Shown here piece after piece: positions 1,062 through 24,055 of a stretch of 30,401 nt of DNA. The translations under genes were made by a program, and so were the position numbers. The stretch comes from a virus (lineage: Duplodnaviria; Caudoviricetes): IMG/VR virus record IMGVR_UViG_3300009167_000024, positions 1-30,401 of that record; one strand, 5' to 3'. The notes under the pieces are model-generated. The model saw nothing but the letters and a program-made list of their open reading frames with translations. It ran no database searches and was not told the origin of the DNA. The stretch's first letter is position 1, and every line of letters begins with the position of its first letter.

Positions 1062-1068
1062 GGCCTGC

Positions 1069-1080
1069 ATAGTAGCACCG
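1069..1080 (-). promoter_or_regulatory. Extended -10 promoter (TGcTACTAT), probably giving a leaderless glycosyltransferase mRNA
   Basis: Minus strand reads CGGTGCTACTAT-gcaggcc-ATG with no Shine-Dalgarno. The same motif occurs at 19124-19135 and 25960-25971. Confidence 0.55.
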
Positions 1081-1103
1081 GCCCCCCCGTAGGGGGGCCG
1101 GTG
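1076..1103 (-). terminator. Perfect 12-bp hairpin with cUACGg tetraloop after the capsid genes (terminator or RNA-stability element)
   Basis: Minus strand CACCGGCCCCCC-TACG-GGGGGGCCGGTG. No clear U-tract follows. Confidence 0.55.
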
Positions 1104-1183
1104 AGAGAAGGTCACGGCTCGTTCTGTTCCCAAGGAAGCCGCTTTCCTCGGAGGCTCAGTCAGTTATCAAGTGCGCATCCTGG

Positions 1184-1459
1184 TTAGGCCAGAATACCGA
1201 TCAGGTACGACCAAGTGACCGCGCCCGTGGTTGTGGCACGGGTCACAGTCAGCGTAGTCGCATCCGAGGCCCAGGTGAGGACGCCTTCCCCGGAAGTCTG
1301 GAGCAGCACGAAATCGGGCGCAGCGCCCAACCCATGAGTCAGAGCATCCGTGGCGGCGGTAGCACCGAAGGTCAACGACCCGGCCTTGTATTTGCCAGCG
1401 GCAAATAGGGCCATGAGACCCGCGGCGTCGGTCAGGTTGCGACCGTACTCAGCAGGCAT
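1184..1459 (-). CDS. Small Thr/Ala-rich beta-strand virion protein (head decoration or fibre candidate)
   Basis: Coupled to the major capsid gene by a TAATG overlap; THGLGAAPDFV motif resembles phage fibre/decoration domains. Confidence 0.6.
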   Translation of the reverse strand: MPAEYGRNLTDAAGLMALFAAGKYKAGSLTFGATAATDALTHGLGAAPDFVLLQTSGEGVLTWASDATTLTVTRATTTGAVTWSYLIGILA

Positions 1460-2391
1460 TAGGAGTTGCTTCCGATGCTAGACGCAGAGCCGAGTCGCCG
1501 CGATGCGGCGCTCCGCAACTGCCCCCACCCCTGGTAGCAGTACCAGCCGATAGGCTGGAACCGCTGGAGCCGGTCGGTAACCGGGCCGATGACGATGTGC
1601 GGGGCGATGGCAACAGCCTTCGCAAGCGCCTCACGACCGAGGAAGTAGGTGTAGTAGAGGTCTACTGCACTTGAACCCCCGTCAGCCAGGAGATACGCCC
1701 GTGGAGACTCGACCCATCGCATACTGGCGAAGCGACCGATCTCGTTGTTGAGAACGGCCCCGTAGTTGTTCACCACGGCAGGGCTTACCCACCCCGCGTC
1801 GCCGGTCTCCTTCTTGAGATCGTATGCGACATCGGGATGCGCAATCGCCAGGTAGTCGCTACCGCTCATCGGCAGAGCCGACCCACCACGCAACTTGGCC
1901 TCTTGCTTGCGAGCAAGGGCCGCGGTGATGATGGAGGTCGAGACCTGCGCAACAGCGGTAGTCCCCGTCACATACTCCAGTGTCCCCGCCGCGTCCAGCG
2001 CGTTGCGGGCCAGCCTGTCAATGGAATCGACCATGTTGAAGTTGACCAGATTGGCAACGTCAGGGTCGAACCCAATGAGCATCTCGATGGCGCGCAGTTT
2101 CCGAGTAAGAAGCACGGCGTTGCCGTACTCATACGGGGTCACTGTGACCGCCGAAGAAGCCAGGCCCACAGCGTCAACATCGACGGTCTCGCTCAGGGCG
2201 GTGGTCGCCTGGCTCATCTCGGTCCAGAAGTAGAACGAGACAGGAGAGCCAGGAGAGGTCAGAGAGCCAGGCTTCACCATGGCAATCTGATCGAACACCA
2301 CGTCCGAACGAAGCGCGAAGAAGGCGCTACGCTGATAGGCGGTGAGAACCGCGCCACTCAACTGGCTAGTGCCAGTGAATGTGTCGGCCAT
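1459..2391 (-). CDS. Major capsid protein (N4-gp56-like, HK97 fold)
   Basis: 310 aa directly downstream of the scaffold; LSETVD, EYGNAV.LT.KL, HPDVAYDL, EIGRF...R.VES and D.LQRF..IGWY motifs. Confidence 0.9.
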   Translation of the reverse strand: MADTFTGTSQLSGAVLTAYQRSAFFALRSDVVFDQIAMVKPGSLTSPGSPVSFYFWTEMSQATTALSETVDVDAVGLASSAVTVTPYEYGNAVLLTRKLRAIEMLIGFDPDVANLVNFNMVDSIDRLARNALDAAGTLEYVTGTTAVAQVSTSIITAALARKQEAKLRGGSALPMSGSDYLAIAHPDVAYDLKKETGDAGWVSPAVVNNYGAVLNNEIGRFASMRWVESPRAYLLADGGSSAVDLYYTYFLGREALAKAVAIAPHIVIGPVTDRLQRFQPIGWYCYQGWGQLRSAASRRLGSASSIGSNS

Positions 2392-2418
2392 GTATCACCT
2401 ATGGAGTGTGTGGGATTC

Positions 2419-2916
2419 CTATTGCTGGAGGAAACCACCCTCGCGAGCAATCTCGATCAGTTCCTCCTGCGACTTGGCCTTCGCAACACGCGAAGCCAGG
2501 TCGCCGGTTGCCTTGCCGCTGGCAGCAGCGGCTACCTGCTGCCCCAGGTTTGCGACCCCGGCAACCTCGGAGGCAAGATCGGTCTTGCCCTCGGGCTGAC
2601 TGGACTCTTCGGCCTTGACCTTCGGCTCCAGGCCCAGCCCCTTCAGGAACTCGGCCACCGCATCGGCGGTCGGTTCCTTCACCTTCTCCACGGCGATCTC
2701 GGACAGCCCTGGGTAACCTGCCTGATTGACAAGGCTCCCAATCTCCATCTCCCGCTTTACCTGTTCGCGGGCGGTGGACACCGCCTCGGCTGCGGCCTTG
2801 GCTTTCGCCTCGGAGTCCCGCAACTTCTGGCGTAGGCTCTTGATGAGATTGCTCTCATCAGCCTGACCCTCGCCGTCGTCGTCCATCGTGGACTCGGTGT
2901 TGGTTCGCTCTGGCAT
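2419..2916 (-). CDS. Capsid scaffolding protein
   Basis: Acidic N-terminus, coiled coil (IKSLRQKLRDSE), C-terminal A.SQEEL..I helix; immediately upstream of the capsid gene; GGAGG RBS. Confidence 0.75.
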   Translation of the reverse strand: MPERTNTESTMDDDGEGQADESNLIKSLRQKLRDSEAKAKAAAEAVSTAREQVKREMEIGSLVNQAGYPGLSEIAVEKVKEPTADAVAEFLKGLGLEPKVKAEESSQPEGKTDLASEVAGVANLGQQVAAAASGKATGDLASRVAKAKSQEELIEIAREGGFLQQ

Positions 2917-3031
2917 ATTGCCCTCCTGTTGGTACTCGGCGCTGCGGAGTTACAGCACCGGCCATTCTCCCGAACTCCCCGTAAGGTGGGGGCTTCCGGT
3001 TCGGCTTATCGACGCCGTGCCGCAATCCGAC

Positions 3032-6560: not shown

Positions 6561-9500
6561 CTAGATTTCCCCAATGAATGCTCCCTGGAACAGTTGCGGG
6601 AAGATGGCGTCGTAATCGACCTCATCGAACATGCGTTCCCCGAGGAATACGAGGTCGGTCCCGATCTGCGGATTGTTCTGCATGTCCCTCATGATCTGCA
6701 TGTAGATGAGGCTGAAGAGTTGGTCGCCTGCGGTGGATTCGGGGGTCTTCTCCATCGAGGACAGCGACTCGACCACCATGTTGATCGCGGGGAGGTACTG
6801 CCGCAGGCTGGTGGGCAGCATGTTGAGGACACTGAGCCGCTGGATGGGAAGCAACTCGCGCCAGACGGCTTCGCCGCCACGCCCGTTCTGGATGAGCCAC
6901 AGGCTGAGTGCGTCCTGAAGCGTGGAGGACACGCTGTTGGCTTGGGTCTGCGTGTACTCGGAGAGTTCCCCGGTTACCCAGTTCGGCTCGATGGCATCGC
7001 CCCACATGTTGCGCAGGTGGTTGTAGGCGTTGTAGACCTCAGCCTGCTCGATGGTGGTGGGGAGGTACTGAGCGGCTTCGGGGGCACGGTCGGCAAGCCG
7101 CTGCGCAGCGAACACGTTCAACCACTCGGGCTTCGTGCCGACCCACTTGTAGAGTTGGGTCTCCTGCTCTTCGGTGGTCTTGGCGCTCCACCACCATTCC
7201 AGCACGGACGGGAAGGCGACCCCTTCGATGGTGACGGGCTTCATGCCCTCGCCGTTCTGGTAGTTGCGAATCTCGTCGTAGAGGGCCGACCGCTCTTCGC
7301 TGTCGTGTACCGTGTCGAGCCGGTCGAACAAGGCTCCCAGCCCGTCGTAGTACGCGCCAACGTAGTCATCGAAGTAGGCGGCGAGCGCCGCCTGCCTCGG
7401 GTTGGTGATCTCTTCCTCCAGGTAGGCGTCACGCCACGACTGGATGCCCTGCCTGACCTGGACGATGATGGCTCGCATCTTGCCAACGAACTCCTGCCGT
7501 TCGCTGGTGGACATGGACAGAACCTCGTCGGCGTTGAGCGACCAGTCCTCCAGGGTCTCGATGTCCATGTTGAGGCGACGCTCCAACTCGGTGATGAGAG
7601 TGGCGTTCTCTTCCCGGTTGCGCTCAACGTGGTCGAGGTACGCGCCCTGGTTGAAGAAGTCGTCAGCGTAGTCCATGACATCGGTGAAGACCCCGAAGGG
7701 GGCCACGTAGTCGCGGTACGACTGGTAGTTCTGGACGATGCGGGATGCGGCCACCACCGGGTCGTTGCCGTACCGCTGGACGATGGCAACCTCCCGGCTG
7801 AACGAGTTGGCGCTGCGGGCGTACCGCTGAAGGAAGACGTGGGGTGGGTACGGCTTGCGGATACCGGCGCGCAGATCGTCCGAGTACTGATCGATGGTCT
7901 GCGTGTCGGGGGCTTCCCCGTTCGGACCCCAGTAGGTCTTGCCCATGATGAAGGGCAGGATTTCGGGGTAGCGAGTCGAGAGGTAGTGCTTGGCGAACGA
8001 GCCGCGCTCAGGCTCTTGGAACCATGTAGCGAGCATGTTGTTGAAAGCCTGCATGTCCTGACGAGCCTGCTCGTCGTCGCCCGAGAGGGCGGGCAGCATG
8101 TACCCTTCCATGTCGAAGTTCTCGGGGTCGGCCTGCGCCAACTGGCGCGCCTGGTGGTAGGCGGCTGCAACTTCCTGCTCGTGGTAGAGCATCCGTGGGA
8201 TGGCGGGTGCCACGAAGCCGGTGATGCCACGCATGATGAGTGCGCCGCCAGCGTTCTTCATGGCCCGGCTGAGTAGTTCCCCCTCCAGGCGTTGTGCTTC
8301 ATCGAGCGCCAACTGGAACGCCCGGCCACCCGGCTGATCGGGATGCGCAACGGTGATGGTCGTGCCGTTGACCTCGATGCCGATGGTGGATTCGTACTCG
8401 TCCATGAGCCTGCCGACGACCGCCCAGGCTTCGATGGTCTTGGTCATGAGTCCTTCCTCGGCCTCCAGGTGTTGCATCTGGACGAGGATTTCGCCCGAGA
8501 TGCCTGCCCTGGTTTCGGGAGTAGCCATGAAGGAGAGGAAGCCCGACTCGGGCAGATCGTCCCCAGGCTCGATGCCCTGGGACGAGCCGCCGTGCAAGCC
8601 CCAGCCACGGAGGACGTACTGTGTCCAGCCGGGCAAGATGTCGAAGAAGAGGCCAGCCATGGTGTCCTCTCGCCCGAAGGGGAAGAAGAAGGGGTCGATG
8701 ATCTGCTCGATGAGGCTGCTGTCCGGTATCTTCAGGCCGGTCATCACATTCGGGATGACCGTATCGGGGGAGACCTCCCCGGCGAACAGGAGCCGAGCGG
8801 TCTCCCTGCCGAACGCTTCCTCAAAGGCTCCGCGGTTGATGGCGTAGACGGCGCTCGGCGTGGTGTTCCACCGAGCCGCGAGTTCGGCAACGGTCTCGCC
8901 CTCGACGGAATCGCCCCGGTCGTAGTCCACGGCGAAGGGGATGCGGTTGAGGATGTTGGATGCGACCCAGGTGCCGAGCGGGTTGAGACCCAAGTACGCC
9001 TGGTTGACAGCCATCAGCCCATGGGAGAACGGGTCGGTGGGCTTGCCCAGGTTGAGGTACCACACGTCCTTGCCCGGCCCCTCGTCGTAGGCGAACGGGT
9101 TGCCGAGGATGTTGCGCACGTTGCACAGGTGTTGGACGACGGTGGCTGGTGTGGCGATCATGTGGAAGAGAGTCTTGCTCATCACGTCCCCGAACACGTT
9201 GCCGGTGTTGGAGCGCGGGTCGAGGCGCATCCTCATCTGCCGGGTGCGGAGCGGAGAGTTGGGGTCGGGTTCGGCGTCGAACTCGATGAGGCCCATGTTG
9301 ACCAAGGCGCGCACGAAGCGGTCCACCTTGCGAATCATGACCGGGACACCGATGCCCCACCCCATGAGGGACGGTATCTTGTAGGCCCAGGTCTGAGCGA
9401 CCTCCCACCAGGCGGTGAAGAAGGGGCTGACCTTGTTGAAGGCCCGCAGGAACGGCACCGCGTTGTCCATGTTGTAGAAGACGTGGTTGACCTTCTCGGC

Positions 9501-12500
9501 GGCGATCTGATGCGCGGCCTGTTGCGCCGCCTCGTGAGCGAAGCCACGGTCCCGGTAGTAGCGGTAGGACTCCCTGAAGGCAGCGAGGTAGGCGGGTCGC
9601 CGGTTGACGTACTGGCTCAACTTGTCGCCCGAGAAGGCCATGATGCGGCGCGCCATGAAGCCGACGAAGCCGGTGATGGTGTCGGGGGTGTCATCGAAGA
9701 GGAAGCGAGCGTCCCAGTGGGACGTGACGGTGGGGGGCAGGCCGAGTCCTTCGACCTTGCCCTGCTCTTCCACGATCTGACGGATGGTGCTGGTGAAACT
9801 CGCCTCGTGCGCGGCGCGCATGTGGAACAGGTACTCGCTGTTGCCGATCTTGACCGTGACCGGCTCGTTGTTCATCAGGGCGTTGATGATGCGGATTTGC
9901 TCGTCGGCACCCTGGTTCTTCCATATCCACCCGAACAGGTAGTCGGTGTACTTGTCCACGATGTCGGTCAGGTACCACTCGGCCAGACGTTGAGGCCCGC
10001 CCTGGAGGATGTCGGCAGGAGCCTTCCCCTTGTCCACAGCGCGCTCGGCCACCCGACGTATGTTCCCGGCGATGTCGTCCCACCACGTCGAGGCAACCAG
10101 AGCCTCGGCACGCCACGGGCCTGCATCGCCGTGCCCGGCGATGGCGGCGAGGCGTCGGCCCAGCCCGAACTTGCCCACCACGGGGTCGTTGCCGAGTTGG
10201 TGCAGAGACCGGCCCAGGGCGGTGCCGTACCGCTTGGACTCGTCCACGGTCATGCCGAATCGGGTCAACTGGACGGGGAGGCTACCGGATGAGGTCACGT
10301 CCTCGATGTACCTCATGGCGAAGCCCTTGTTCATGATCTCGGTGATGTCGCCCCAGTCGAAGTCCATGTCGAGGCCCATCTCCTTGAGGCGGGCACGGGC
10401 GACACGGGACTTGCCGGTGCGCATAACGACACGACGGCTGACGCCCCTGGTGCCGTGGGCGAAGATGTCGGCGTTGGTCTCGTTGAGGAAGGAGTGCGTG
10501 ATGACGTGGGCGACACCGGCCTTGGCGCGAACGGCTGTGGTGAGGCTGTCCTTCCCGGCGTCGGTCAGGAGCCGGTCGATGTCGGGAACGACGAGGCGCG
10601 CCGCAGCCAGCACGTCCTCGGGAGTGGCCGTGTCTGGCAGACCCTTCCACATGTCGTTGAGGATGTCGTGGAGTAGTTTCTGGTTCTTCGCTTGCCAGGT
10701 GACGACCCGGCTGGTCAGGTACTCATCGAACCAGGAACTCAACATGCGGACTGGGTTGCGGGCGAAGGAGGGGAGGTCGTAGAAGGCTCCGCGGAACTGC
10801 TCTTCCAGAAGAACGCGCCCGGCCCAGGCGACGGGCCGCAGCGCCAACTGCGACACGGAGAAGACACCGTGGAACACGTTGTACGCCTTGCCGAGAGCGT
10901 GCGAGACCAGGGCGACCTTGCCCAGCCCGCCGAGGTCTCCCTTGTCGCTGCGCCAGACGGTAGCGTAGGCGAGAGCCAGGGCGTCCTCGTCGGTGAGACC
11001 GCCCAGGTCTACGATGCCTTCCTTCCGCATCCGTGCTATCTCGTTGCGATACTTGTTGGCGAGCGACTTGCGCCTGATGGCGGTCTCGCCCCACCCCATC
11101 AACCCGCGTTCGTAGCCCGGCATCTTCTTGTAGTTCTGCGTTTGCTTCCAGCGTCGCAGCGACCGGAAGAACTGCTCGTCGGGCAGAGCCACGAAGCGGG
11201 CGTTGTGGCTGGGGAACAGTGGCAGCGGGACATCCAACTTGCCCGCCCCGCGCCCGTAACCAAGACCCAGTTCCTCGATGCCGCCCATCTCGTCGCCCAC
11301 CGCGGCGTACAGACGGACGCCTTGCTTCTCGACGTACTCTACGAGATGGAACTTGAAGAGGGGGTGGTTGATCTCGTCGGACACGGCGATGACGGCGTTG
11401 CGCACCACGTCGTAGCGCTCTGCCACCGGGGAGTTGATGAACTCGTTGACCCAGCGGGTGATGAAGGATTCGGACGCCCCGCACTTGCGGAGGAAGATGC
11501 CGAGCGAGTGCCCGCCTTCGCCTCCCTTGAACAAGTCGAAGACCGGCTTGTAGCGGGGGTTGAAGAACATGGCCGACGCACGGCGTCGGAAGCCGCCCCA
11601 CCAACCCTGTGCGTCGTTGGAGGCGTGCGACCGCCACAGTCGCTTGCCACGGAGTTGGGGAACGTGGGTCGGGAAGTCCTTGACCCAAATGGTGCGGGAA
11701 CCACCAGCCTCGATGCGCTTGAAGAGCGCTTCTCGGTCCCGCCACTTCTGGAGAGCGGTCTGGTACATGCTGGACGGCGCTTCGGGGGCGGTCATGTGCT
11801 TGGCCCGCTGAAGCCTGCCCGCCCCACGGTTGGTGAGGAACCGGGCGTCGATGGTGGCATCCGAACCGGGGAGCATCCGAGAGATCAGGCGAATCTCGTC
11901 TGCGTCGGGAGCAATGGTGTCTGCGTAGCGAAGCAACAGAGCCACCATCTCGGGGTCGGCCAGGACACGCTGGAAGATGTCGTGCATCCTGGTGACGTGA
12001 GAGGGCGTCAACTGCGCCTCCAGGGTTTGCACCTGAAGGTCGCGGAGCGCCATGTGCAGCCGGGTGGGAGCCGACATCTGATCGTATCCGAAGGCGTTCC
12101 GGTTGATACCGGAGTCGCCCCTGGCCCACACATCGATTCCGTCTTCGGTGCGGTAGTGGTAGAAGTTCTGCCCACCGATACGCCTGGTCTCGTCCATATC
12201 GATGAGTGGGGTGCCCGGCTTGATGGCGAACACCCCGGTCGGACCACCGAGCATAACCTCATCGGTGCGCTCTACCCAACGCGTAGCGGTGCGCCGAGAG
12301 ATGCCGAAGTGGTCAGCGATAGCCTGGAGAGTGACGCCTTGCTGCCGCATGTACCAAGCGTTGACCCACTTGCGCTGGATGCCTTCGGGAACCATGGAGA
12401 GCATGGCATCCTGGATGGGCACCATGGAGCGACCGCGGAAGATGTGGAGATCGGCGGCACTCTCGACCGCCGAGGTTGCGGTGGGGACCGCGTGGTAGTC

Positions 12501-14432
12501 GGGGTGCCGAGCAAGCCACTCAAAGAGTTTCCCCATCCCTCGTGCGGCTGCGCCCGCGGCGACGCCTTGGACTACGCCTTCTCCGGTGACAGCAACCGCG
12601 TGCCAGTTGTGGGGAAGAACCACCACGGCTGAGTCGTCGTAGGCGGTGGGGGATGGCGGGTTGAAACGGATTGCCCCCTGCCCGGCTTCCCGTGCCTGCT
12701 GCTCGGGGTCGATGACGTGGAAGATGGCCCTGCCGGTGAGGTCTCCGCTGATGTCCGCTTCGCGGACGGCGGTGAGTCCCGTCGCTCCGCTGGCAAGACG
12801 ACCACGAGCGTAGGAGCCGATCATGAACTCCACACCATCGAAGCCGTCCACTTCCCCGACGAGCAGGTGCGGAGCCACCACCCCATCCTCGATGCCCTTG
12901 CGGACGATCTCTTGGTAGTCGGCAGCAGACGTGGCCCTGAGTCGGGCCAGGAACTCCATGCCCTCCACACCCTTCGCGCCTTGCGTGAACTGGCCCTTCG
13001 CGGCCAGCAGGTACGCCTGCTCTATCGCCTCGGGTGAGTCGCAGCGGGCGAGCATCTGCGATACGAACGTGTCGGCCAGGGGCCGAAGGTGGGGGTAGAA
13101 CTCCAGCAGCCGAGCGATGCCGCCCGAGCCGTGAAGGACTTCGTACATGTGCGTCCACACGCCGTTCGCTCGCGCCTGCTCCACGAACCACTCTTCGGGG
13201 TGTGCCCTGAGCGACCACATGAACCGTGCGGCCAGGTTGCGGGAGAAGCGCGGCAAGCGGGTGAAGCGGCGTCCGAAGATGGGAAGGAGAGCGCCTGCGG
13301 CGCGCAGGGCGCGGGGGATTGCCGCCAACTTGGGGGTGAGGGCAATCGTCCTCGACATCTTGGCACCGATGCCCCACCCGGCGAGAAGGTTGAGCGGGTC
13401 GAGGTAGATGTTGTTGAAGCCGTCGATGGCCCCGGAAGCGAGAGTCCAGGCAAACCCGTCACCGGGTTCCAGACCAAGCGACGTGGCGATGTTCTGGCCG
13501 ATGGAGAGTCCCTGCCGCCATTGCCACTCGTCGGGGTCTACGAGATGGCCCCCAATCCAGTTGATGCCACGGGCCACCATGAAGTGCGGGACGGACATCA
13601 TCGCGCCGAAGTTGGCGAAGCCGCCCATGTTCCCGACCCACTCCTGCTGCTGCTGGCGCGTCCACTGGTAGAACATGGTGAAGAACTGAGCGCGCTGGTT
13701 GGGGTCGCTGAGGTCGTGGTCGCCGTCGTTGAGGTACTGGTGAGCGAGGCTGAGTACGGCATCGCGGCGGTGGAACCCGAAGTCGTCCGTGGCGGGGATG
13801 GTGGCGAGCAGGGTCATCATCAACTGACGTTCATCCGAATGCCACATGTGGCGGGTCTCAGTGAAGAACTCTGCGACCAGCGGCGAGTCGGAGAGCGCCT
13901 GCTCGACATGCTCCTGGGCGTAGTCGGGAAGGTCGGGGATGAGCGCCTGCATCATGGCGATGGCTTCGCCGTTGTCCATGCCGATCTGCGACCGGGTGTA
14001 GGCGACCATCTCGGGCATGGCGAGCATGGCCCAACCGGAACGGATGAGGTCTCCGACGAGAACCGGGTTCTCGGCGTCGATCTGCTGCATGGTGAGCGCG
14101 ATCTCGCGGAAGGTCTGCTCCCCGTTGGAGGGGAGGGGAGCGGTGTACCAGACTGGGGAGTAGCCCTCTCCGAGCAGTTGCCTCGGGGTAGGCATCTGCA
14201 TGATGGCCGCTTGGGAGAGCGGCCTGGGCGGGCCTGAGTACACCGGGAGGTCGATGGCCGCTTCCTGGAGTCGTTCGTGTTCGGCCAGGAACTCCTGGCG
14301 CGGCTGAACCTCAGACTGGAGCGGCGTACCGGGCCGCTGGCCCATGACCCCAGCCTGGAGGATGGGCGCGGCTACGCGCGGAAGAGTCTCGGGCTGCTCT
14401 TCGGTGGGAGCGGGATGGGCGTCACGGGGCAT
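6561..14432 (-). CDS. Giant (~2,620 aa) polyvalent / internal virion protein with an embedded HTH and a LysM-like domain
   Basis: Uninterrupted ORF; start moved to ATG 14432 (MPRD) behind GGAGGGG. HTH GVTLQAIADHFGISRRTATRWV at ~12270-12345; LysM-like GETVAELAARWNTTPSAVYAIN...LKIP at ~8724-8915. Confidence 0.75.
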   Translation of the reverse strand: MPRDAHPAPTEEQPETLPRVAAPILQAGVMGQRPGTPLQSEVQPRQEFLAEHERLQEAAIDLPVYSGPPRPLSQAAIMQMPTPRQLLGEGYSPVWYTAPLPSNGEQTFREIALTMQQIDAENPVLVGDLIRSGWAMLAMPEMVAYTRSQIGMDNGEAIAMMQALIPDLPDYAQEHVEQALSDSPLVAEFFTETRHMWHSDERQLMMTLLATIPATDDFGFHRRDAVLSLAHQYLNDGDHDLSDPNQRAQFFTMFYQWTRQQQQEWVGNMGGFANFGAMMSVPHFMVARGINWIGGHLVDPDEWQWRQGLSIGQNIATSLGLEPGDGFAWTLASGAIDGFNNIYLDPLNLLAGWGIGAKMSRTIALTPKLAAIPRALRAAGALLPIFGRRFTRLPRFSRNLAARFMWSLRAHPEEWFVEQARANGVWTHMYEVLHGSGGIARLLEFYPHLRPLADTFVSQMLARCDSPEAIEQAYLLAAKGQFTQGAKGVEGMEFLARLRATSAADYQEIVRKGIEDGVVAPHLLVGEVDGFDGVEFMIGSYARGRLASGATGLTAVREADISGDLTGRAIFHVIDPEQQAREAGQGAIRFNPPSPTAYDDSAVVVLPHNWHAVAVTGEGVVQGVAAGAAARGMGKLFEWLARHPDYHAVPTATSAVESAADLHIFRGRSMVPIQDAMLSMVPEGIQRKWVNAWYMRQQGVTLQAIADHFGISRRTATRWVERTDEVMLGGPTGVFAIKPGTPLIDMDETRRIGGQNFYHYRTEDGIDVWARGDSGINRNAFGYDQMSAPTRLHMALRDLQVQTLEAQLTPSHVTRMHDIFQRVLADPEMVALLLRYADTIAPDADEIRLISRMLPGSDATIDARFLTNRGAGRLQRAKHMTAPEAPSSMYQTALQKWRDREALFKRIEAGGSRTIWVKDFPTHVPQLRGKRLWRSHASNDAQGWWGGFRRRASAMFFNPRYKPVFDLFKGGEGGHSLGIFLRKCGASESFITRWVNEFINSPVAERYDVVRNAVIAVSDEINHPLFKFHLVEYVEKQGVRLYAAVGDEMGGIEELGLGYGRGAGKLDVPLPLFPSHNARFVALPDEQFFRSLRRWKQTQNYKKMPGYERGLMGWGETAIRRKSLANKYRNEIARMRKEGIVDLGGLTDEDALALAYATVWRSDKGDLGGLGKVALVSHALGKAYNVFHGVFSVSQLALRPVAWAGRVLLEEQFRGAFYDLPSFARNPVRMLSSWFDEYLTSRVVTWQAKNQKLLHDILNDMWKGLPDTATPEDVLAAARLVVPDIDRLLTDAGKDSLTTAVRAKAGVAHVITHSFLNETNADIFAHGTRGVSRRVVMRTGKSRVARARLKEMGLDMDFDWGDITEIMNKGFAMRYIEDVTSSGSLPVQLTRFGMTVDESKRYGTALGRSLHQLGNDPVVGKFGLGRRLAAIAGHGDAGPWRAEALVASTWWDDIAGNIRRVAERAVDKGKAPADILQGGPQRLAEWYLTDIVDKYTDYLFGWIWKNQGADEQIRIINALMNNEPVTVKIGNSEYLFHMRAAHEASFTSTIRQIVEEQGKVEGLGLPPTVTSHWDARFLFDDTPDTITGFVGFMARRIMAFSGDKLSQYVNRRPAYLAAFRESYRYYRDRGFAHEAAQQAAHQIAAEKVNHVFYNMDNAVPFLRAFNKVSPFFTAWWEVAQTWAYKIPSLMGWGIGVPVMIRKVDRFVRALVNMGLIEFDAEPDPNSPLRTRQMRMRLDPRSNTGNVFGDVMSKTLFHMIATPATVVQHLCNVRNILGNPFAYDEGPGKDVWYLNLGKPTDPFSHGLMAVNQAYLGLNPLGTWVASNILNRIPFAVDYDRGDSVEGETVAELAARWNTTPSAVYAINRGAFEEAFGRETARLLFAGEVSPDTVIPNVMTGLKIPDSSLIEQIIDPFFFPFGREDTMAGLFFDILPGWTQYVLRGWGLHGGSSQGIEPGDDLPESGFLSFMATPETRAGISGEILVQMQHLEAEEGLMTKTIEAWAVVGRLMDEYESTIGIEVNGTTITVAHPDQPGGRAFQLALDEAQRLEGELLSRAMKNAGGALIMRGITGFVAPAIPRMLYHEQEVAAAYHQARQLAQADPENFDMEGYMLPALSGDDEQARQDMQAFNNMLATWFQEPERGSFAKHYLSTRYPEILPFIMGKTYWGPNGEAPDTQTIDQYSDDLRAGIRKPYPPHVFLQRYARSANSFSREVAIVQRYGNDPVVAASRIVQNYQSYRDYVAPFGVFTDVMDYADDFFNQGAYLDHVERNREENATLITELERRLNMDIETLEDWSLNADEVLSMSTSERQEFVGKMRAIIVQVRQGIQSWRDAYLEEEITNPRQAALAAYFDDYVGAYYDGLGALFDRLDTVHDSEERSALYDEIRNYQNGEGMKPVTIEGVAFPSVLEWWWSAKTTEEQETQLYKWVGTKPEWLNVFAAQRLADRAPEAAQYLPTTIEQAEVYNAYNHLRNMWGDAIEPNWVTGELSEYTQTQANSVSSTLQDALSLWLIQNGRGGEAVWRELLPIQRLSVLNMLPTSLRQYLPAINMVVESLSSMEKTPESTAGDQLFSLIYMQIMRDMQNNPQIGTDLVFLGERMFDEVDYDAIFPQLFQGAFIGEI

Positions 14433-14970
14433 ACTGTCCCCCTCCGAACTGCGCCTCGACCAGATCATCGGCTTCTTGCATGTCGATGAACTGGTTGTCT
14501 TGGACGGTCGGGCCGGTCAGCATGTTGTGGAGCCTGGTGATGTAGGCGCTGACCAACGTGCCCGACGCGCCAGGGGATGAGGCGAGCCGTTCTAGGAGGG
14601 GAAGCCATGCCCGGTAGTCGTGGCGGGACTGTCCGACGACGCCGCCCTTCGGCCCCGAGTAGGTGCCGCCGATACGCTGGGCGAGGAAGGAGATGGGGTC
14701 GCCGGGGATGCCGCCTTCGACGCCTCCCCGCATGGAGGCTTCACGTTGCGCCTGCCTGCGTTCAGCGCGGGCCGGGGGCTGCGTCCGCTTGATCGGCTGG
14801 ACACGCTGCCCCTGCTCCAACGCCTGCACATCGCCTTGCTGAAGATCGGAGCCTTGGAGGAAGGGGACGTTGCGCCGCTCCAGATCGTGACGCTTGGAGT
14901 TGCGCCCGATGCCCGGTGCTTGGGCGGGCCTGTTCTGTGGGGGGATTCGACCGCCTGTGCGCCTAGCCAT
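14422..14970 (-). CDS. Hypothetical protein downstream of portal (basic N-terminus)
   Basis: 182-aa ORF fills the portal-to-giant-gene gap, with a 3-nt gap on one side and a short overlap on the other. Confidence 0.65.
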   Translation of the reverse strand: MARRTGGRIPPQNRPAQAPGIGRNSKRHDLERRNVPFLQGSDLQQGDVQALEQGQRVQPIKRTQPPARAERRQAQREASMRGGVEGGIPGDPISFLAQRIGGTYSGPKGGVVGQSRHDYRAWLPLLERLASSPGASGTLVSAYITRLHNMLTGPTVQDNQFIDMQEADDLVEAQFGGGQYAP

Positions 14971-16671: not shown

Positions 16672-18663
16672 CTATTCAACCTCAACGGAACCGTCCCCAT
16701 CTCCCTCATATTCCCAAACCTCGTCCAACTCCGACAAGTCGATGGTCACTTCCTGCTCCTTGAGGAAGAGCGGCAGGTTCTCCCAACCGGGCATGTGTTC
16801 GGGCGTGGCGGTGCGCAACTCTTCGATCATGTCGATGACGGAGAGGTAGGCGAGCCACAGCGACATGATGCGGTCGTTGGGCCTGCGGGGGAAGCGAACC
16901 ATCTGTGTGAGCAGGGGTTCCATCGCTTGCCGGTCCTGCGGATACTGGAAGGGGACGGAGAGGCGACCGCTCTCGGAGAAGCGGGCGAGCATGGGGATGC
17001 CGAGGTCGTAGTCCCACTTGCGCTCGTCGGTCGTCCACTCGTCCACCATGAAGCCGAGGCGCAGGGATTCCTCGGTGAGCCGCTGGTCTCGGGCGAGGGC
17101 GCGCTGGTAGGCGTTGGCCTCGACCCGCACCCGCTTGGGCCGGTACATGGCGGCGTAGCGGGCGATCTCCCCGGTGTGAAGTTCGGGGGAGAGCAGACGG
17201 CTCCACGACTCTTCGACGTAGAGGCGCATACAGTGTCGGCAACCGGCGAGGACGGTGAGGGCGGTTTCGGAAGACTCTGCCGAGTCGCTGCCACCGGGGT
17301 CGAAGCCGATGGCCCGCAGCAGCGGGTCTCCGCTCTGGCAGCAGCCGTCCTTGCGCCCGATGCTGCGCCGGTAGTCCAGCACGCCGGGGGACTCGCCGGG
17401 GCCGAGGTCGCGGTAGCGCTTGGCTACCGGGTCGTAGGTCGGCTCGGGGAAGCGGGCGCGGACGACGACTTCGCGGAAGGTCTGGATGCGCCCTTCCAGC
17501 GGCTCCTGGTTGTAGCAGACCATGAACATGATGTCGCCCAGGGTGCGGCGCATCTCTTCCAGGAACCAGTAGGGCCGCTCTTCGGCCCACAGCATACAGT
17601 GGACGCCGTGCCGCTGCTCATCGATCACCCCCGGCAGGCACTTGGAGAGATCGTGAGCCTTCATCTTGAGGAAGTGGATGGGGGTCTCCAGGCTCCCCGA
17701 CTCCATCTCGGAGTAGGCGTCCCCGTAGGGGGACGGCTGGTGGGAGCCGATGCCGAGTACCGGCGTCCACGGTTCGCGTCGGGTCATCAACTGCGACTTG
17801 ACCCACCGCACGTCGCGGGCGGTCTGTGCCGGGGACTCTGCGGAACGGATGTCGATGAAGTCGTCCACGATGATGATGTCGGCGTCACGGGACAGCACCG
17901 TGCTGCCCTTGCCGACCGGCTTCAGGGTGGGGGACCGGATGACCTGGGTACGACCGGCGACCACCAGGCCGTCCTTCGACCACTGGTTCGCGGACTGGAA
18001 GGGGCCGTACCACTCGACCAGGCGCTCGTTGGATTCCAACTCCATCTTGATGTACTCGACGCCCAACTCGGAGAGGTCGAGGGAGCCGCCGCACCAGAGG
18101 ATTCGGATGTTGGGGTTGTAGCACATGAGCCAGATCATCGCGTGCAGGAAGAGGTCGGTCTTGCCGTGCCGTGGGGGTGCGAGTATCCACACGGTCATCA
18201 GCCGGTCCATGTTGTTCTTCCAGTCGCCCAGTCCCCACTCGGACACGTCCACGTCGCAGGTGTCGTGGAAGTAGGTGACGACCCACTCGGGGAGGTCGAT
18301 CTTCAGAGCGAGGCTGACGACGAGCCAGAACCATGCGAACTGGTGGCGGGGGGTGGAGTAGGGCTTGCCGTTGGGGGCAAGGAAGAACATGGAGCGCCAG
18401 GTCGGGAAGTTCTCGGGCCTCAGCAGTTCGGTGGCTTCTGCCGAGCGTTCGGTGACGCCGACCCGCTGCTCCAGCCAGGCGAAGTCGTTCTTGATCGTTG
18501 CCGGGGAGGGGGTCTTGTCGAGATCGAAGTGGCCTTGCACGTCGAGAGCCATGTCGCGCAAGGAGAAGCCGCCCTTCTCGTGGCGGCGGTAGCGATGCTC
18601 CTGGGAGCGCAGGTACGCCCGGCGTGCCTGGGTCGAGTAGAATGGTGCGTTGCTTACTGTCAC
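16672..18663 (-). CDS. terL: Terminase large subunit with an N-terminal extension
   Basis: Walker A APPRHGKT, Walker B IIIVDD, YNQEP linker, RNase H-like nuclease GFDPGG, C-terminal FP...ND..M.LW. Confidence 0.93.
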   Translation of the reverse strand: MTVSNAPFYSTQARRAYLRSQEHRYRRHEKGGFSLRDMALDVQGHFDLDKTPSPATIKNDFAWLEQRVGVTERSAEATELLRPENFPTWRSMFFLAPNGKPYSTPRHQFAWFWLVVSLALKIDLPEWVVTYFHDTCDVDVSEWGLGDWKNNMDRLMTVWILAPPRHGKTDLFLHAMIWLMCYNPNIRILWCGGSLDLSELGVEYIKMELESNERLVEWYGPFQSANQWSKDGLVVAGRTQVIRSPTLKPVGKGSTVLSRDADIIIVDDFIDIRSAESPAQTARDVRWVKSQLMTRREPWTPVLGIGSHQPSPYGDAYSEMESGSLETPIHFLKMKAHDLSKCLPGVIDEQRHGVHCMLWAEERPYWFLEEMRRTLGDIMFMVCYNQEPLEGRIQTFREVVVRARFPEPTYDPVAKRYRDLGPGESPGVLDYRRSIGRKDGCCQSGDPLLRAIGFDPGGSDSAESSETALTVLAGCRHCMRLYVEESWSRLLSPELHTGEIARYAAMYRPKRVRVEANAYQRALARDQRLTEESLRLGFMVDEWTTDERKWDYDLGIPMLARFSESGRLSVPFQYPQDRQAMEPLLTQMVRFPRRPNDRIMSLWLAYLSVIDMIEELRTATPEHMPGWENLPLFLKEQEVTIDLSELDEVWEYEGDGDGSVEVE

Positions 18664-20108: not shown

Positions 20109-20326
20109 CGGGAACTCCTGGAGCGGGTGTTCCCGGCACGGACGCGGGGGTTCTTGTGGTAGACGGACACCATCTTGCGTCCGAGCAGGAAGTCGAGGAC
20201 GGGGTTGCCGTAGACCCGTCTGCGTTCCAGGTCAACGTGGTAGCCGGGACGCCGGTAGGTGTGTGCGGCCGCGGCGCGGGCGTTGCGCCCCCCGGTGCGT
20301 CCTGCCCTGGCCCTAGTGCTTGCCAC
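20105..20326 (-). CDS. Small Arg-rich basic protein
   Basis: 73 aa; GGAGG RBS before GTG 20326; overlaps both neighbours. Confidence 0.55.
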   Translation of the reverse strand: MASTRARAGRTGGRNARAAAAHTYRRPGYHVDLERRRVYGNPVLDFLLGRKMVSVYHKNPRVRAGNTRSRSSR

Positions 20327-20444
20327 GCTGTCGCCTCCGTGTCTTCGGCCTCGGTCGAGAGCCGTACTTCTTCGTCCAACGCCGGGCGATGTCGGGATGT
20401 TCCATCCACAGGTACCGCCGCTGGGCTTCGCTTCTGAAGGGCAT
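20313..20444 (-). CDS. Small basic phage protein (MPFxSExQRRY-type)
   Basis: MPFRSEAQRRYLWMEHPDIARRWTKKYG, an N-terminus I recognise as recurring in uncultured phages near packaging genes; purine-rich RBS. Confidence 0.7.
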   Translation of the reverse strand: MPFRSEAQRRYLWMEHPDIARRWTKKYGSRPRPKTRRRQRGKH

Positions 20445-20485: not shown

Positions 20486-20512
20486 AGACTACCACCCCTA
20501 AGGTGGTAGTCT
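20486..20512. repeat. Perfect 11-bp inverted repeat
   Basis: AGACTACCACC-CCTAA-GGTGGTAGTCT. Confidence 0.85.
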
Positions 20513-20671
20513 GAGCATCCCCCTGCTCGCTACGCTCGCGTCCCCCTACAAGCGAACCGGAGAAGAGCCTATTCCCAGGCCCGCGAAGAAAGCCTCTGAC
20601 CAGGATGCTTGCAATCTGCAAGTGACACCCCTGGCACTCACCCCGAGGCAACTGCTGGCCCTGGAGTCCAG

Positions 20672-20687
20672 TCGAACATACGTTCGA
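20672..20687. promoter_or_regulatory. LexA (SOS) box 1
   Basis: TCGAAC-ATAC-GTTCGA, an exact match to the actinobacterial consensus TCGAAC-N4-GTTCGA. Confidence 0.85.
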
Positions 20688-20749
20688 TCAATGACCCACC
20701 ACGATTGCATGTCGCTCCTGGAAGCCCTGGCCCGCACCAAGAAGGCCAA

Positions 20750-20765
20750 TCGAACACCTGTTCGA
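20750..20765. promoter_or_regulatory. LexA (SOS) box 2
   Basis: TCGAAC-ACCT-GTTCGA. Confidence 0.85.
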
Positions 20766-20789
20766 CCCTCGGACACCCCCAGGAAGGCA

Positions 20790-20805
20790 TCGAACACACG
20801 TTCGA
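20790..20805. promoter_or_regulatory. LexA (SOS) box 3
   Basis: TCGAAC-ACAC-GTTCGA; the palindrome extends to GCATCGAAC...GTTCGATGC. Confidence 0.85.
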
Positions 20806-21015
20806 TGCTTGCACAGACCCGCAAATGACTTCCTGTGCGCTGTTCAGGCCCATTCCAGGGCGACTACGCCTGCCTGCTAGCCCCCTACCCCAACGCCTCC
20901 GGGGTCGCGTCGCCTCTGCGTGTGCGTGTGCGTGCGGGCGCGTGCGTCGTGTGTGTGTCGCGCCCATGCCGCGCACCTGATAGACGCGCGTCTTTGCCAT
21001 TCACACACAAACGAC

Positions 21016-21044
21016 TTGACATCGGGCGCGCCGATGCCGATAAT
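21016..21044 (+). promoter_or_regulatory. Near-consensus sigma70/SigA promoter for the rightward operon
   Basis: TTGACA (21016-21), 17-nt spacer, GATAAT (21039-44). Confidence 0.8.
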
Positions 21045-21157
21045 GATTGAGGGGGAGGGGGAGGGTACGCCGCGCCGAGTAGATTGGAGACCATGGATAG
21101 GGAAGGTGAATCGGCATCGAAGTGGCAAGGCTATGCGAGTAGAAAGGCAATGGGTAG

Positions 21158-22648
21158 ATGCCTGACGACTTCGATAACATCGACATCAACGCGCACGCGT
21201 TCGCGTGCGACGTGTGCGCGAGGGTAGGCGCAACCTACCTAACGCGTTGGCAATGCCTGACGTGTGGCGCGCGTCTTTGCCTTGAGCATGTAGGCGAGCG
21301 CGTGAGTAGTGGCGCATGGTATCAAGATGGTATCGGGCGCGGCTATTGTGTGGCGTGTGTGGAAGCGCGGGAACGTGACACACGCGAGCGTATAGCATCG
21401 GCAACCCGCGCCGATGCAGAAAGGCTAGAGACCATGCCGAACGATGGCGCGATGAATGGCGCGCACCCTATTGGCACCGATGCCGATAGCGTCGCGTCGT
21501 GTGTGTGCGACGTGTGTAGCGAGACCATCGACGCGAACGCGTCACGCGATGAATGCGAAGCGTGCGGGCGCGTCTACTGCAATGAGTGTGGCGCGACTGA
21601 ACACGACGTGGCGCATTGCCGCGACTGTGCGTTGATACGCTGCCGCGACTGTGGCGACTGGTATCTAGTTGCCGATGGTGAATCGTTCCGTGAATGCGAT
21701 GAGTGCGGGCACTCATTGTGCGAGTCGTGCGGCAATACAACCGATGGTGGCGATGTCGCGTGTGAACGTCATTACTGCGAGTGCGTGGACTGTGGCTATT
21801 CATGGTGCGGCAGATTCCACAACGATGAGTCGTTGTGTGAGTCGTGCTATGAAGAGCGCGGCGAGTCTGAATACATCAATGACTATTCGCATAAGCCTTA
21901 CCCTAACTTCATCGGGTTGCCTTGCGATGGTCTCTATATGGGCGTGGAGATTGAAGCCGAACTTGAACCTACCACGCGAGGCGCGGAGTATCTACACTCG
22001 CACTCCGATGGCGAGCAGCGTTACTACTTGAAGCACGATGGAAGCGTGCAAGGTTATGAACTTGTCACGCATCCCGGTTCATTGGATGCATGGCGCGATG
22101 GTCTCGTCATTGACTGGGACGTGTGGAATCGTTGGGTGCGCGAGTATGAACCCGCGTTGGAAGATGGCTACAACAATGGATTGCACGTCCATATCAGTAG
22201 GGACGCGTTCTATCGGAACGGAACGCGGCGCAATGGTGGCACGTTGGATGCCGCGCACGTGTGGCGATGGATTCAACTTATCTATCGGAATCCCGATGCA
22301 TGGAAGCGCATAGGTGGACGCGATGGCTCATCGTATGCATCATGGCATAGGGTTGCCGAAGAGCGCGCCAACGCGCATCGCTATGCGCGTGGCACGGACT
22401 ATCCCGACCGATATAGCGCGGTCAACTTCCAGAATAGCGCGACCATTGAACTTCGATTCCTGAAGCCGAACCGCGATAAGGCTGTGCTATTGGGTCAACT
22501 TGAGTGGATTGCCGCGAGCGTTGACTACACGCGCACGATGACCTATGCCGACGTGACTAGCGGCGCGTTGTCGATGGATGCATTCAACGATTGGATGGTC
22601 ACTCACCGCGCCGAGTACGGATTCGCAATCGACATGATCGGAGGCTAG
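21158..22648 (+). CDS. Putative amidoligase (COOH-NH2 ligase, glutamine synthetase-like fold) with an N-terminal multi-CxxC Zn-ribbon array
   Basis: GVEIE, KHDGS..GYELVTHP, GLHVHIS, RY.AVN and TIELRF motifs; about 12 CxxC motifs in the first ~235 aa. Confidence 0.88.
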   Translation: MPDDFDNIDINAHAFACDVCARVGATYLTRWQCLTCGARLCLEHVGERVSSGAWYQDGIGRGYCVACVEARERDTRERIASATRADAERLETMPNDGAMNGAHPIGTDADSVASCVCDVCSETIDANASRDECEACGRVYCNECGATEHDVAHCRDCALIRCRDCGDWYLVADGESFRECDECGHSLCESCGNTTDGGDVACERHYCECVDCGYSWCGRFHNDESLCESCYEERGESEYINDYSHKPYPNFIGLPCDGLYMGVEIEAELEPTTRGAEYLHSHSDGEQRYYLKHDGSVQGYELVTHPGSLDAWRDGLVIDWDVWNRWVREYEPALEDGYNNGLHVHISRDAFYRNGTRRNGGTLDAAHVWRWIQLIYRNPDAWKRIGGRDGSSYASWHRVAEERANAHRYARGTDYPDRYSAVNFQNSATIELRFLKPNRDKAVLLGQLEWIAASVDYTRTMTYADVTSGALSMDAFNDWMVTHRAEYGFAIDMIGG

Positions 22649-22709
22649 ACTAGAGACTATGCAAGCACGACGTACACAACGCTATCAAAGAAAGGACGTG
22701 TGATCGCCT

Positions 22710-23816
22710 GTGTGTGTTGCCGTTGCCGTGAATCCTGGCGCAAGGCTGACCCATTCGGAGTGGGATAAGTGTTGGAGTGCCAATCCCGATGGTGGTGGCT
22801 ATGCCTACCTTCACCGTGGCAAGTTGATTGTGCAGCGTGGATTGTCACGCGCTGACCTGTGGCGGCGCTACTTCAAGGATGCACAGAACAACCCGAAGTC
22901 GCCATTCATTCTCCACTTCAGAATCGCAACGCATGGGAACGTGTGCCTAGATAACACGCACCCATTCATCGTTGACCATCGGCATAGTGGTTCCACTGTG
23001 CTAGCGCACAATGGCATCATCGCCAACGTACTCACCGACCTTGAACCCAATGAGTCTGATACTCGTGCGTTCATTCGGTTGTATGCGCGGTTCCTTCCCG
23101 CGGGTTGGATGGACAATGCCGCCATCGTGGAACTTGTGGAACACTACATCGGTACGTCATTGATCGTCATGCTCACTACCGATAAGGCTGCATCGCGCAA
23201 CCTGTATATCCTCAATGAGTCATTGGGAACCTGGGATGGTGATAGGTGGTTCTCCAATGAGCATTGGCGATTCGGTGGCTATGTAACGTGTGGGCGTGGC
23301 ATCGGTGATTGGATGCCTAACGCATGGATGTTCGATGCCGATACGCGCGTGTGGTCGCGTGCCGTGAAGGTGAAGGACGCGACGCACAAGGCTACTCCCG
23401 CGATGCGTAGCGCTGCCGCGCACGTCGATTCGCATGGAGTGAAGCATGAACCGTGGCTACCCAATGGCACCATGCCATTGATCGGCATGAGTCAAGATGC
23501 ACTCACCGACATCATGATCGATGCCATCGATGGTGGATTCTGCGAGCGTTGCCTATGGAAGCCTTGTTGGTGCGATGGCGTGTGCTTCGATTGCACGCGC
23601 CCGATGGATGAATGCGAATGCGGCATGGAACTATCGTGCGCGACGTACTACGGACACCATGCCGATTCCGATGGCATGACGTGGCTAGATGCGAACGGGC
23701 CGGTGCCTAAGTACCCTGTGTTGGCGCGCACTCCACAGGCTCGCGACGTTGCCGACCTAACGCTTGACGACTGGCTAGAACTTGAACGGTCGATGACTGG
23801 GAAGGTGCATCGATGA
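22710..23816 (+). CDS. Class II (Ntn) glutamine amidotransferase with a C-terminal Cys cluster
   Basis: Cys at position 2 (M-C), NPDGGG, HFRIATHG, NTHPF, HNGII and SDT motifs; AGAAAGGA RBS. Confidence 0.92.
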   Translation: MCVAVAVNPGARLTHSEWDKCWSANPDGGGYAYLHRGKLIVQRGLSRADLWRRYFKDAQNNPKSPFILHFRIATHGNVCLDNTHPFIVDHRHSGSTVLAHNGIIANVLTDLEPNESDTRAFIRLYARFLPAGWMDNAAIVELVEHYIGTSLIVMLTTDKAASRNLYILNESLGTWDGDRWFSNEHWRFGGYVTCGRGIGDWMPNAWMFDADTRVWSRAVKVKDATHKATPAMRSAAAHVDSHGVKHEPWLPNGTMPLIGMSQDALTDIMIDAIDGGFCERCLWKPCWCDGVCFDCTRPMDECECGMELSCATYYGHHADSDGMTWLDANGPVPKYPVLARTPQARDVADLTLDDWLELERSMTGKVHR

Positions 23817-24055
23817 CCCTAGCGTTGGTGCCTAGCGCGCCGAGAGATGTTCGGGCGCTATCCCGATTCGGTGACGCGGTGCAAGTCTATGCGCCCGGTT
23901 GGATGGCTAAGTTGCCGTGGTTCTGTGCCGTGTGTAGGCGTACCCTGGCGCATGAGTACGCATGGAAGTTGGCATTCGGTGGCATCGTGTGTGACTACTG
24001 CCGCACCGATGCAGAAAGGATGGTGAAGGATGCCGCATCGCACCGTCACGCTTGA
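23813..24055 (+). CDS. Small Zn-finger protein
   Basis: CAVC...CDYC; ATGA overlap with the amidotransferase. Confidence 0.6.
   Translation: MTLALVPSAPRDVRALSRFGDAVQVYAPGWMAKLPWFCAVCRRTLAHEYAWKLAFGGIVCDYCRTDAERMVKDAASHRHA

Follow-up and report, generated by a model that had tools for sequence, protein, structure and literature searches.

The junction of two divergent arms in a podophage fragment

The window, i.e., the whole stretch of DNA analysed, is an entire virus record of 30,401 bp and represents a genome fragment without end repeats, about a quarter to a half of the genome being missing from it. The minus-strand (late) arm begins with small basic ORFs from 20444 and continues with the holin, the terminase, a portal-like gene, the gene of a 2635-aa protein, the endolysin, the capsid gene (phrog_1357) and a glycosyltransferase; the plus-strand (early) arm, following an early promoter match, carries amidoligase-like, amidotransferase-like, DnaQ-like, PD-(D/E)XK and DnaB-like genes. 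In the gap between the arms there are three perfect palindromes, referred to below as SOS boxes 1-3 (Table 1). The first early genes (21000-24000) have a G+C content of 55-58%, versus 61-67% elsewhere in the window. The 2635-aa virion-type protein (6561-14468) contains a helix-turn-helix match at residues 700-736 (Pfam HTH_23, E 3e-9) and is possibly an ejected DNA-binding protein.

Table 1. Features of the window, with positions counted from its first letter.
Feature	Position	Strand	Sequence or remark
SOS box 1	20672..20687		TCGAAC-ATAC-GTTCGA; 28.9 bits on the host (G002) matrix
SOS box 2	20750..20765		TCGAAC-ACCT-GTTCGA; 26.0 bits on the host (G002) matrix
SOS box 3	20790..20805		TCGAAC-ACAC-GTTCGA; 26.7 bits on the host (G002) matrix
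Palindrome	20609..20621		TTGCA-ATC-TGCAA; possible further protein site
Perfect 11-bp inverted repeat	20486..20512		late leader
Late-promoter-like motif	20548..20575	-	GGAAT-N18-CTTGT; putative promoter role
End signature	20866..20906	-	GACCC 41 nt before AGTCG; repeat edge placed by homology
Predicted direct terminal repeat	20866..21120		drawn with the 253-275 bp of Beephvirinae; that of G001 is 640 bp
Early promoter match	21016..21044	+	TTGACA-17-GATAAT; sigma-A-type, 11/12 consensus; predicted
First late-arm gene, 43-aa basic protein	20313..20444	-	purine-rich ribosome-binding site; no Pfam match
Terminase large subunit (phrog_38)	16672..18663	-	late arm; 89% match on a contig assigned to an Acidimicrobiia MAG by binning
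Major capsid protein	1459..2391	-	38-41% identical to Beephvirinae and Planktophila phages E7/F5
Amidoligase-like gene	21158-22648	+	first early gene; 30% homolog in L005 matches an amidoligase PHROG
Class II glutamine amidotransferase-like gene	22710-23816	+	early arm

Judged from its sequence, the window is a fragment of a podophage related to the Beephvirinae (Streptomyces cluster BF), which are described in PMC9753666 as podoviruses with short direct terminal repeats. It shares with them and with the Planktophila phages E7 and F5, reported in PMC10202952 to lyse their acI host, two divergent arms that join at a short terminal repeat, the same end signature, a DnaB-like helicase and a PD-(D/E)XK nuclease. 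However, the terminase is only about 22% identical to theirs, and the window has no tRNA cluster. The lack of such a cluster (the search for structured RNA gave no Rfam match in the window), together with only 5 of the 30 window proteins matching WRightOn, at 22-39%, points to a related group rather than to a member of the Beephvirinae. In one relative (L136), a large tRNA cluster occupies positions 580-3400, flanked by the late promoter on one side and by the holin/terminase genes on the other.

The nearest terminase with DNA context lies on a 7-kb contig binned in the Acidimicrobiia MAG G002, and the host is presumed to belong to Acidimicrobiia from this one binned contig, which is weak host evidence; a 37% relative was binned with Pirellulales. 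More than 90% of the sampled words of the window are contained in four runs from three freshwater/wetland studies. The phage is likely lytic and actinobacterial. Among 61 scanned ORFs of at least 120 aa (partial sets) of G001, G076 and G071, a helicase, a primase and a PD-(D/E)XK nuclease were present, and neither a DNA polymerase nor RecA was recognised among them or in the WRightOn annotation; host replication and recombination functions are therefore likely needed. G001 encodes a sigma-70 region 2 protein.

The known repeat of WRightOn, FlowerPower and Immanuel3 comes to its end 40 nt beyond (G/T)ACCC, with AGTCCC following, and in G001, whose terminase is 40% identical, an imperfect 640-bp repeat ends 41 nt after GACCC. 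The window, when read towards the terminase, has GACCC and, 41 nt later, AGTCGCCC. From this spacing, common to Beephvirinae, G001 and the window, the inner (terminase-side) repeat edge is predicted at 20866/20865; the early promoter would then fall inside the repeat, and the boxes would lie 60-193 bp inside the unique late (packaging) end. The inter-arm gap would be, by this prediction, the junction of two genome ends, which the sequence-only reading had missed. The contig depth is about doubled in the bin 20905-21031 in two runs (26.6 versus 10.5, and 26.1 versus 12-15), which is a hint only. Run X4 contains two versions of 20964-21014 with 12 differences and a summed depth above that of the flanks; they may be strain variants or differing copies of the terminal repeat, as in G001, where the two copies of the 640-bp repeat are 90% identical, differ around the early promoter and hold a small gene and a terminator. 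On the late side, the motif GGAAT-N18-GTT(G/A), which we take to resemble an ECF-type promoter, recurs upstream of the terminase in L133, L134, L136, L140 and L196; in the window, a distance of 97 bp separates the late motif from box 1.

The palindromes and the host LexA operator

Three perfect copies of TCGAAC-N4-GTTCGA had been claimed for the gap and no further one for the window; the three were re-found exactly at their places, and the rest of the window is without any copy at 0 or 1 mismatch. The number of perfect copies expected from the base frequencies of the window is 0.0012; with up to 2 mismatches allowed, 7 matches occur against a shuffle mean of 1.16 (7 being reached in 0 of 100 shuffles), and this is the sole spaced palindrome with 6-bp arms present more than once in the window. 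The arms had been called invariant, with differing spacers and flanks. The flanks are indeed unrelated between the copies; the spacers differ yet are constrained, all three being purine-N-purine-pyrimidine on one or the other strand, with a chance of about 0.007. The same bias is found in the host SOS boxes, which strengthens the LexA reading. The approximate distances previously given hold, the boxes being 211 bp from the rightward -35 (21016) and 228 bp from the start codon (ATG, 20444) of the leftward arm's first gene, as does the placement of the boxes off the obvious promoter, since no box overlaps the predicted early or late promoter of the window.

Contigs from two other runs span all three boxes without a listed difference, being near-identical strains; those of the small-share runs X5 and X6 do not reach the boxes, which is uninformative. 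An ORF of 68 aa across the boxes (20622-20828) was rejected as a gene, with no Pfam match and no tblastn match in any locus set. Rejected as well was a promoter on a box, the hexamer TACGTT inside box 1 being without a credible -35 and no -10-like hexamer following any box. A fourth, near-consensus SOS box of 20.5 bits, a value within the host range, is located at 6625-6640, at the end of the 2635-aa gene and about 95 bp before the next late gene, the chance of one such core in the window being roughly 0.1; the next best site of the window after it scores 10.0 bits on the host matrix.

The identification with the actinobacterial LexA operator, proposed earlier, appears sound, because the arms, the 4-bp spacer and the spacer bias all match host operators. 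The boxes fit the LexA consensus tCGAAC-N4-GNNCGa derived from ChIP in S. venezuelae, as given in PMC9380542. The reverse complement of box 1 is identical in 16/16 bp to the dnaE2 box of G002, and box 2 is identical in 15/16 to a box within the lexA promoter of this MAG. In G002 the same word is found in three boxes ahead of lexA and also precedes recA, dnaE2 and further genes, with the names read from translations; the lexA boxes also face a LysM-type gene (read from translation), and a lexA box sits between the -35 TTGACA and the -10 TATATT. The host matrix was made from 15 G002 sites chosen for SOS-like spacers, 14 of which score 19.7-31.4 bits on it and one 8.9. In the phylum of G002, lexA is above the cut-off in 292 of 301 sampled genomes, small genomes included and 11 of those tallied being flagged as unpublished.

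Among the viruses of IMG/VR, 51 loci (24 groups) have a pair of perfect boxes at a spacing of 10-40 bp, versus 3 for the reversed palindrome, and the spacers of the viral tandem boxes from 24 viral groups are R-N-N-Y in 59 of 61 cases. No LexA DNA-binding domain above the cut-off was found in 38 records of the podophage group, where two weak LexA-domain matches belong to a different winged-helix protein. It is highly probable from these sequence matches that the host LexA binds the boxes of the window. The three-box cluster is like the lexA promoter of G002; however, the host boxes are placed on or beside promoter cores, whereas those of the window belong to a phage end region and keep at least 97 bp away from every predicted promoter.

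Recurrence and arrangement of the boxes in related phages

The box-selected set, obtained from three scans, comprises at least 281 tandem-box loci (not deduplicated), at least 200 of them with at least 3 kb of DNA. The terminase of the group is carried by at least 35 of these loci, which form 27, 22 and 18 groups at 95, 85 and 75% DNA identity. Among the terminase loci listed, 89 of 89 14-bp boxes lie upstream of the terminase (86 kb) and 0 downstream of it (111 kb), and the boxes are located between the early and the late arm wherever the sequence was read. The box copy number varies from 1 to 5 and the distance to the terminase from -330 to -2100. The terminase of L039 shares 81.5% identity with its counterpart in Planktophila phage E7.

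The terminase-selected set includes 80 acI-type loci, 57 of them with at least 950 bp upstream, or 53 after merging the near-identical ones. GAAC-RNNY-GTTC was found in the 900 bp before the terminase in 12 of the 53 loci (15 sites; shuffle mean 0.06, maximum 1) and 0 times in 94 kb of terminase sequence. The same 900 bp contain DnaA-type boxes in 8/53 loci (18 sites; shuffles 3.3), and a palindrome GTTGAA-N2/3-TTCAAC lies upstream of the terminase in 10/53 (L444, L446, L458, L463, L468, L497, L502, L505, L511 and L513; shuffles 0), which is likely the site of another host regulator. CRP-type sites TGTGA-N6-TCACA are present in 40/53 acI-type loci (L438-L517) and, after the repeat, in the Beephvirinae too. 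Perfect parS-type words occur in the early region of L343 and L347 (G068:11611), podophages that also bear SOS boxes, and clusters of 2-5 DnaA-type boxes, possibly a host-DnaA origin or a DnaA sink, occupy the same end slot in L005 (6070-6170), L443, L448, L476 and L470. The labels CRP, DnaA and parS are presumptive, given by motif resemblance. As SOS, DnaA-type, CRP-type and other sites alternate before the terminase, it is the slot that is conserved, and not what it carries; sites for LexA are among several host-type sites that can replace one another there, a circumstance missed by the sequence-only reading.

The scan of relatives at the same position, advised earlier, showed that the boxes do recur there, but in a patchy manner, being found in one of four nearer relatives and in none of five cultured ones. 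Of the relatives that span the gap and have terminases 40-50% identical, L134, L196 and G001 are without a box and L136 has one 14-bp box; no SOS box was found in WRightOn and E7 (whole records) or in the end regions of FlowerPower, Immanuel3 and F5. Any benefit of the boxes is therefore dispensable. The box presence is patchy even among phages whose terminases are 77-86% identical. A single-protein scan gave no close relative spanning the gap, the 89% relative (L173) beginning at the terminase start and no other piece of its phage being found in G002; a class-wide portal search returned 3 of 401 genomes, none useful. In about 65 marine low-GC relatives, TAGAAC-N4-GTTCTA occurs upstream of the terminase in 5 loci of 2 lineages (L073, L156, L157, L075 and L085), possibly a sign of a host whose LexA box has shifted; this variant was not counted as support.

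Tandem perfect boxes are also seen in unrelated phages: before the terminase in L003 (with an integrase) and L015, before the DnaB helicase in the L016 group (with an integrase), in the L004 group, and up to seven boxes in L002. A tyrosine integrase was detected in 5 of the first 50 box-selected records, so some unrelated box-bearing phages are temperate, and an S24 peptidase (CI/LexA-type) in 0 of these 50, only a few of which come from the podophage group. For the Beephvirinae-related podophages, the boxes are a recurrent yet dispensable feature of the end region and, by their sequence, very probably host LexA sites.

With regard to promoters, contact with a predicted core is seen for 2 of 118 phage boxes, and 9 of the 118 are placed between -40 and +45 of a predicted -10, for the most part a weakly predicted one. 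The program depends on a good -35 and gave only 3 overlaps among the host sites, which indicates that it under-calls. An early promoter was detected within 150 bp in 22 of 55 box-bearing loci. The nearest boxes of relatives stand at 8, 17, 26, 27, 27, 35-38, 45, 46, 48, 56, 58 and 60 bp from the early -35, and those up to 65 bp are in helical phase (R 0.68, n=15, nominal p 4e-4, for related and hence not independent loci, the phase having been noticed after the fact), which fades beyond 65 bp. CRP-type sites are phased from the early -35 as well, at 11, 21-22 and 31-33 bp (R 0.82, n=27), and one abuts a box in L471, L508, L510 and L517. In L136, L509 and L510, a box precedes a terminase-facing -35 by 26-37 bp. 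Such phasing suggests promoter tuning in those relatives, or selection against a clash with an activator. In 20 loci the boxes lie within about 90-420 bp of the end signature, and the side of the repeat edge varies, being outside in the window and inside or at the outer edge in the acI-type phages.

Possible roles of the boxes

We tentatively favour, at somewhat less than even chances, the reading of the three boxes as a LexA sink, the second of the two mechanisms put forward by the sequence-only reading. The evidence for it consists of the sequence, the host match, the recurrence upstream of the terminase, the placement off the predicted promoters and the swapping with other host-type sites in one slot, while binding, titration and benefit are inferred. 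The sites would multiply along with the phage genomes and would draw LexA away from the host SOS operators, the loss of which would raise the recombination, repair and division-block functions of the host, and the phage would likely use these. A sink fits sites that are perfect, number from 1 to 5, keep no set distance and can be exchanged for other host-type sites. The autoregulation of lexA should, on the other hand, buffer titration. A division block can raise the phage yield according to PMC1949050; against the sink, the native colicin expression of Salmonella stayed unchanged when a LexA-regulated colicin promoter was present in over 100 additional copies, as reported in PMC4675545, and titration is thus not automatic. 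The absence of boxes from several relatives also speaks against it, and the helical phasing near the early -35 in relatives points to a contact with the promoter machinery.

Because of this phasing of the promoter-near boxes, the main rival, somewhat less probable, is an upstream tuning in which LexA bound upstream of the outermost early (or late) promoter would modulate its firing via RNA polymerase or a CRP-type activator, and early transcription would follow the damage state of the host. It draws on the in-phase boxes at 17, 26-27, 35-38, 45-48 and 56-60 bp, the equally phased CRP-type sites that abut a box in four loci and the boxes close before a terminase-facing -35. However, in the window the early -35 is 211 bp from its nearest box, with the predicted repeat edge in between, and the late motif is 97 bp from its own; there is no CRP-type site in the window, an early promoter within 150 bp was detected for only 22 of the 55 box-bearing loci, and the phasing could also reflect selection to keep clear of an activator. 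That LexA is one of several abundant host proteins parked on the termini, either to block or insulate them against silencers, read-through or nucleases or to gate a replication origin, seems unlikely. Such an architecture would suit the clustering of boxes near the end signature in the 20 loci, the DnaA-type clusters beside boxes in L005, L262, L387, L445, L448 and L476 and the perfect parS sites nearby in L343 and L347; yet the box side of the repeat edge is not fixed, the window gap has neither DnaA nor parS site, and we know of no roadblock or origin-gate role for LexA. A precedent for the architecture is T5, which keeps DnaA boxes in its terminal repeat (10.1101/866236).

The sequence-only reading had also considered host LexA as the repressor of a dormant state; such a switch, which would hold the phage as an episome until SOS induction, is disfavoured and appears very improbable. 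The operators are perfect and multiple, and the missing part of the genome leaves room for a maintenance gene. In the Bacillus tectivirus GIL01, as described in PMC4551915, host LexA together with gp7 acts on dinBox1 at the promoter P1, the box being centred at +17, and PMC2731898 describes a host regulator that can silence the lytic phi29. The boxes of the podophages, in contrast, avoid the predicted promoter cores (2 of 118 touching one), and the suggested search for maintenance and repressor genes found none: tyrosine integrase in 0/38 records (7 near-complete), serine recombinase in 0/16, the LexA domain in 0/38, and no ParA-type match among the scanned ORFs. Moreover, lysis of the host is reported (PMC10202952) for the cultured E7 and F5, in which no boxes were found. 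No more probable is that the boxes serve a phage protein, a terminase or a phage regulator, and merely resemble SOS boxes. Their position beside the packaging end, the many one-off half-sites (CGGACA) around the repeat of WRightOn and the LexA homologue encoded by GIL01 (PMC6182141) would agree with it, but not the exact identity with host operators, spacer bias included, nor the clustering of the same word in unrelated phages or the lack of a LexA DNA-binding domain above the cut-off in the 38 records; the patchiness among phages with 77-86% identical terminases is also unlike a packaging signal. The least probable reading is that of neutral relics of host promoter DNA gained by recombination, with which the patchy distribution and the unfixed position are compatible. 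Against it, the flanks are unrelated between the copies and to host loci while the arms and the spacer class are kept, and at least 18 divergent terminase groups have boxes at one place, with none in the 111 kb downstream among the loci listed.

The site itself is of a known kind, and it recurs at the ends of podophages without a sign of lysogeny. GIL01 is similar in having high-affinity host LexA sites (predicted here) near a genome end and an early promoter; it differs in being temperate and in the box lying on P1, while the present case concerns tailed podophages with lytic cultured members, boxes off the predicted cores and no known accessory protein. The 0A boxes of phi29 (PMC2731898) and the injection-stop DnaA boxes of T5 (10.1101/866236) are alike as host-regulator sites in terminal or inter-arm DNA of lytic phages; they involve other host proteins, and the podophages differ in that even closely related members carry different sites (LexA, DnaA, parS and others). 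Compared with the T5-type terminal platform, the window gap has no DnaA boxes, which are present in 8/53 acI-type loci, and the T5 paper (10.1101/866236) has 0 occurrences of LexA. No account of LexA arrays at podophage termini was found in the literature searched, beyond the reach of which were most subscription papers and all supplements.

The host LexA sites known from phages serve as switches of lysogeny or antirepressors, and here the boxes recur at podophage ends in about a fifth of the sample from an abundant freshwater group. It is conceivable, if rather unlikely, that the genome ends of this large lytic actinobacterial group form an exchangeable landing strip for host global regulators, where LexA arrays would be DNA-only decoys that switch on SOS in step with the copy number, without DNA damage or a phage protein. 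Under either the sink or the upstream tuning, lytic phages would have a means, based on DNA sites only, of sensing or bending the SOS response, and, as the box version follows the LexA of the host, it may be used as a marker for host assignment.
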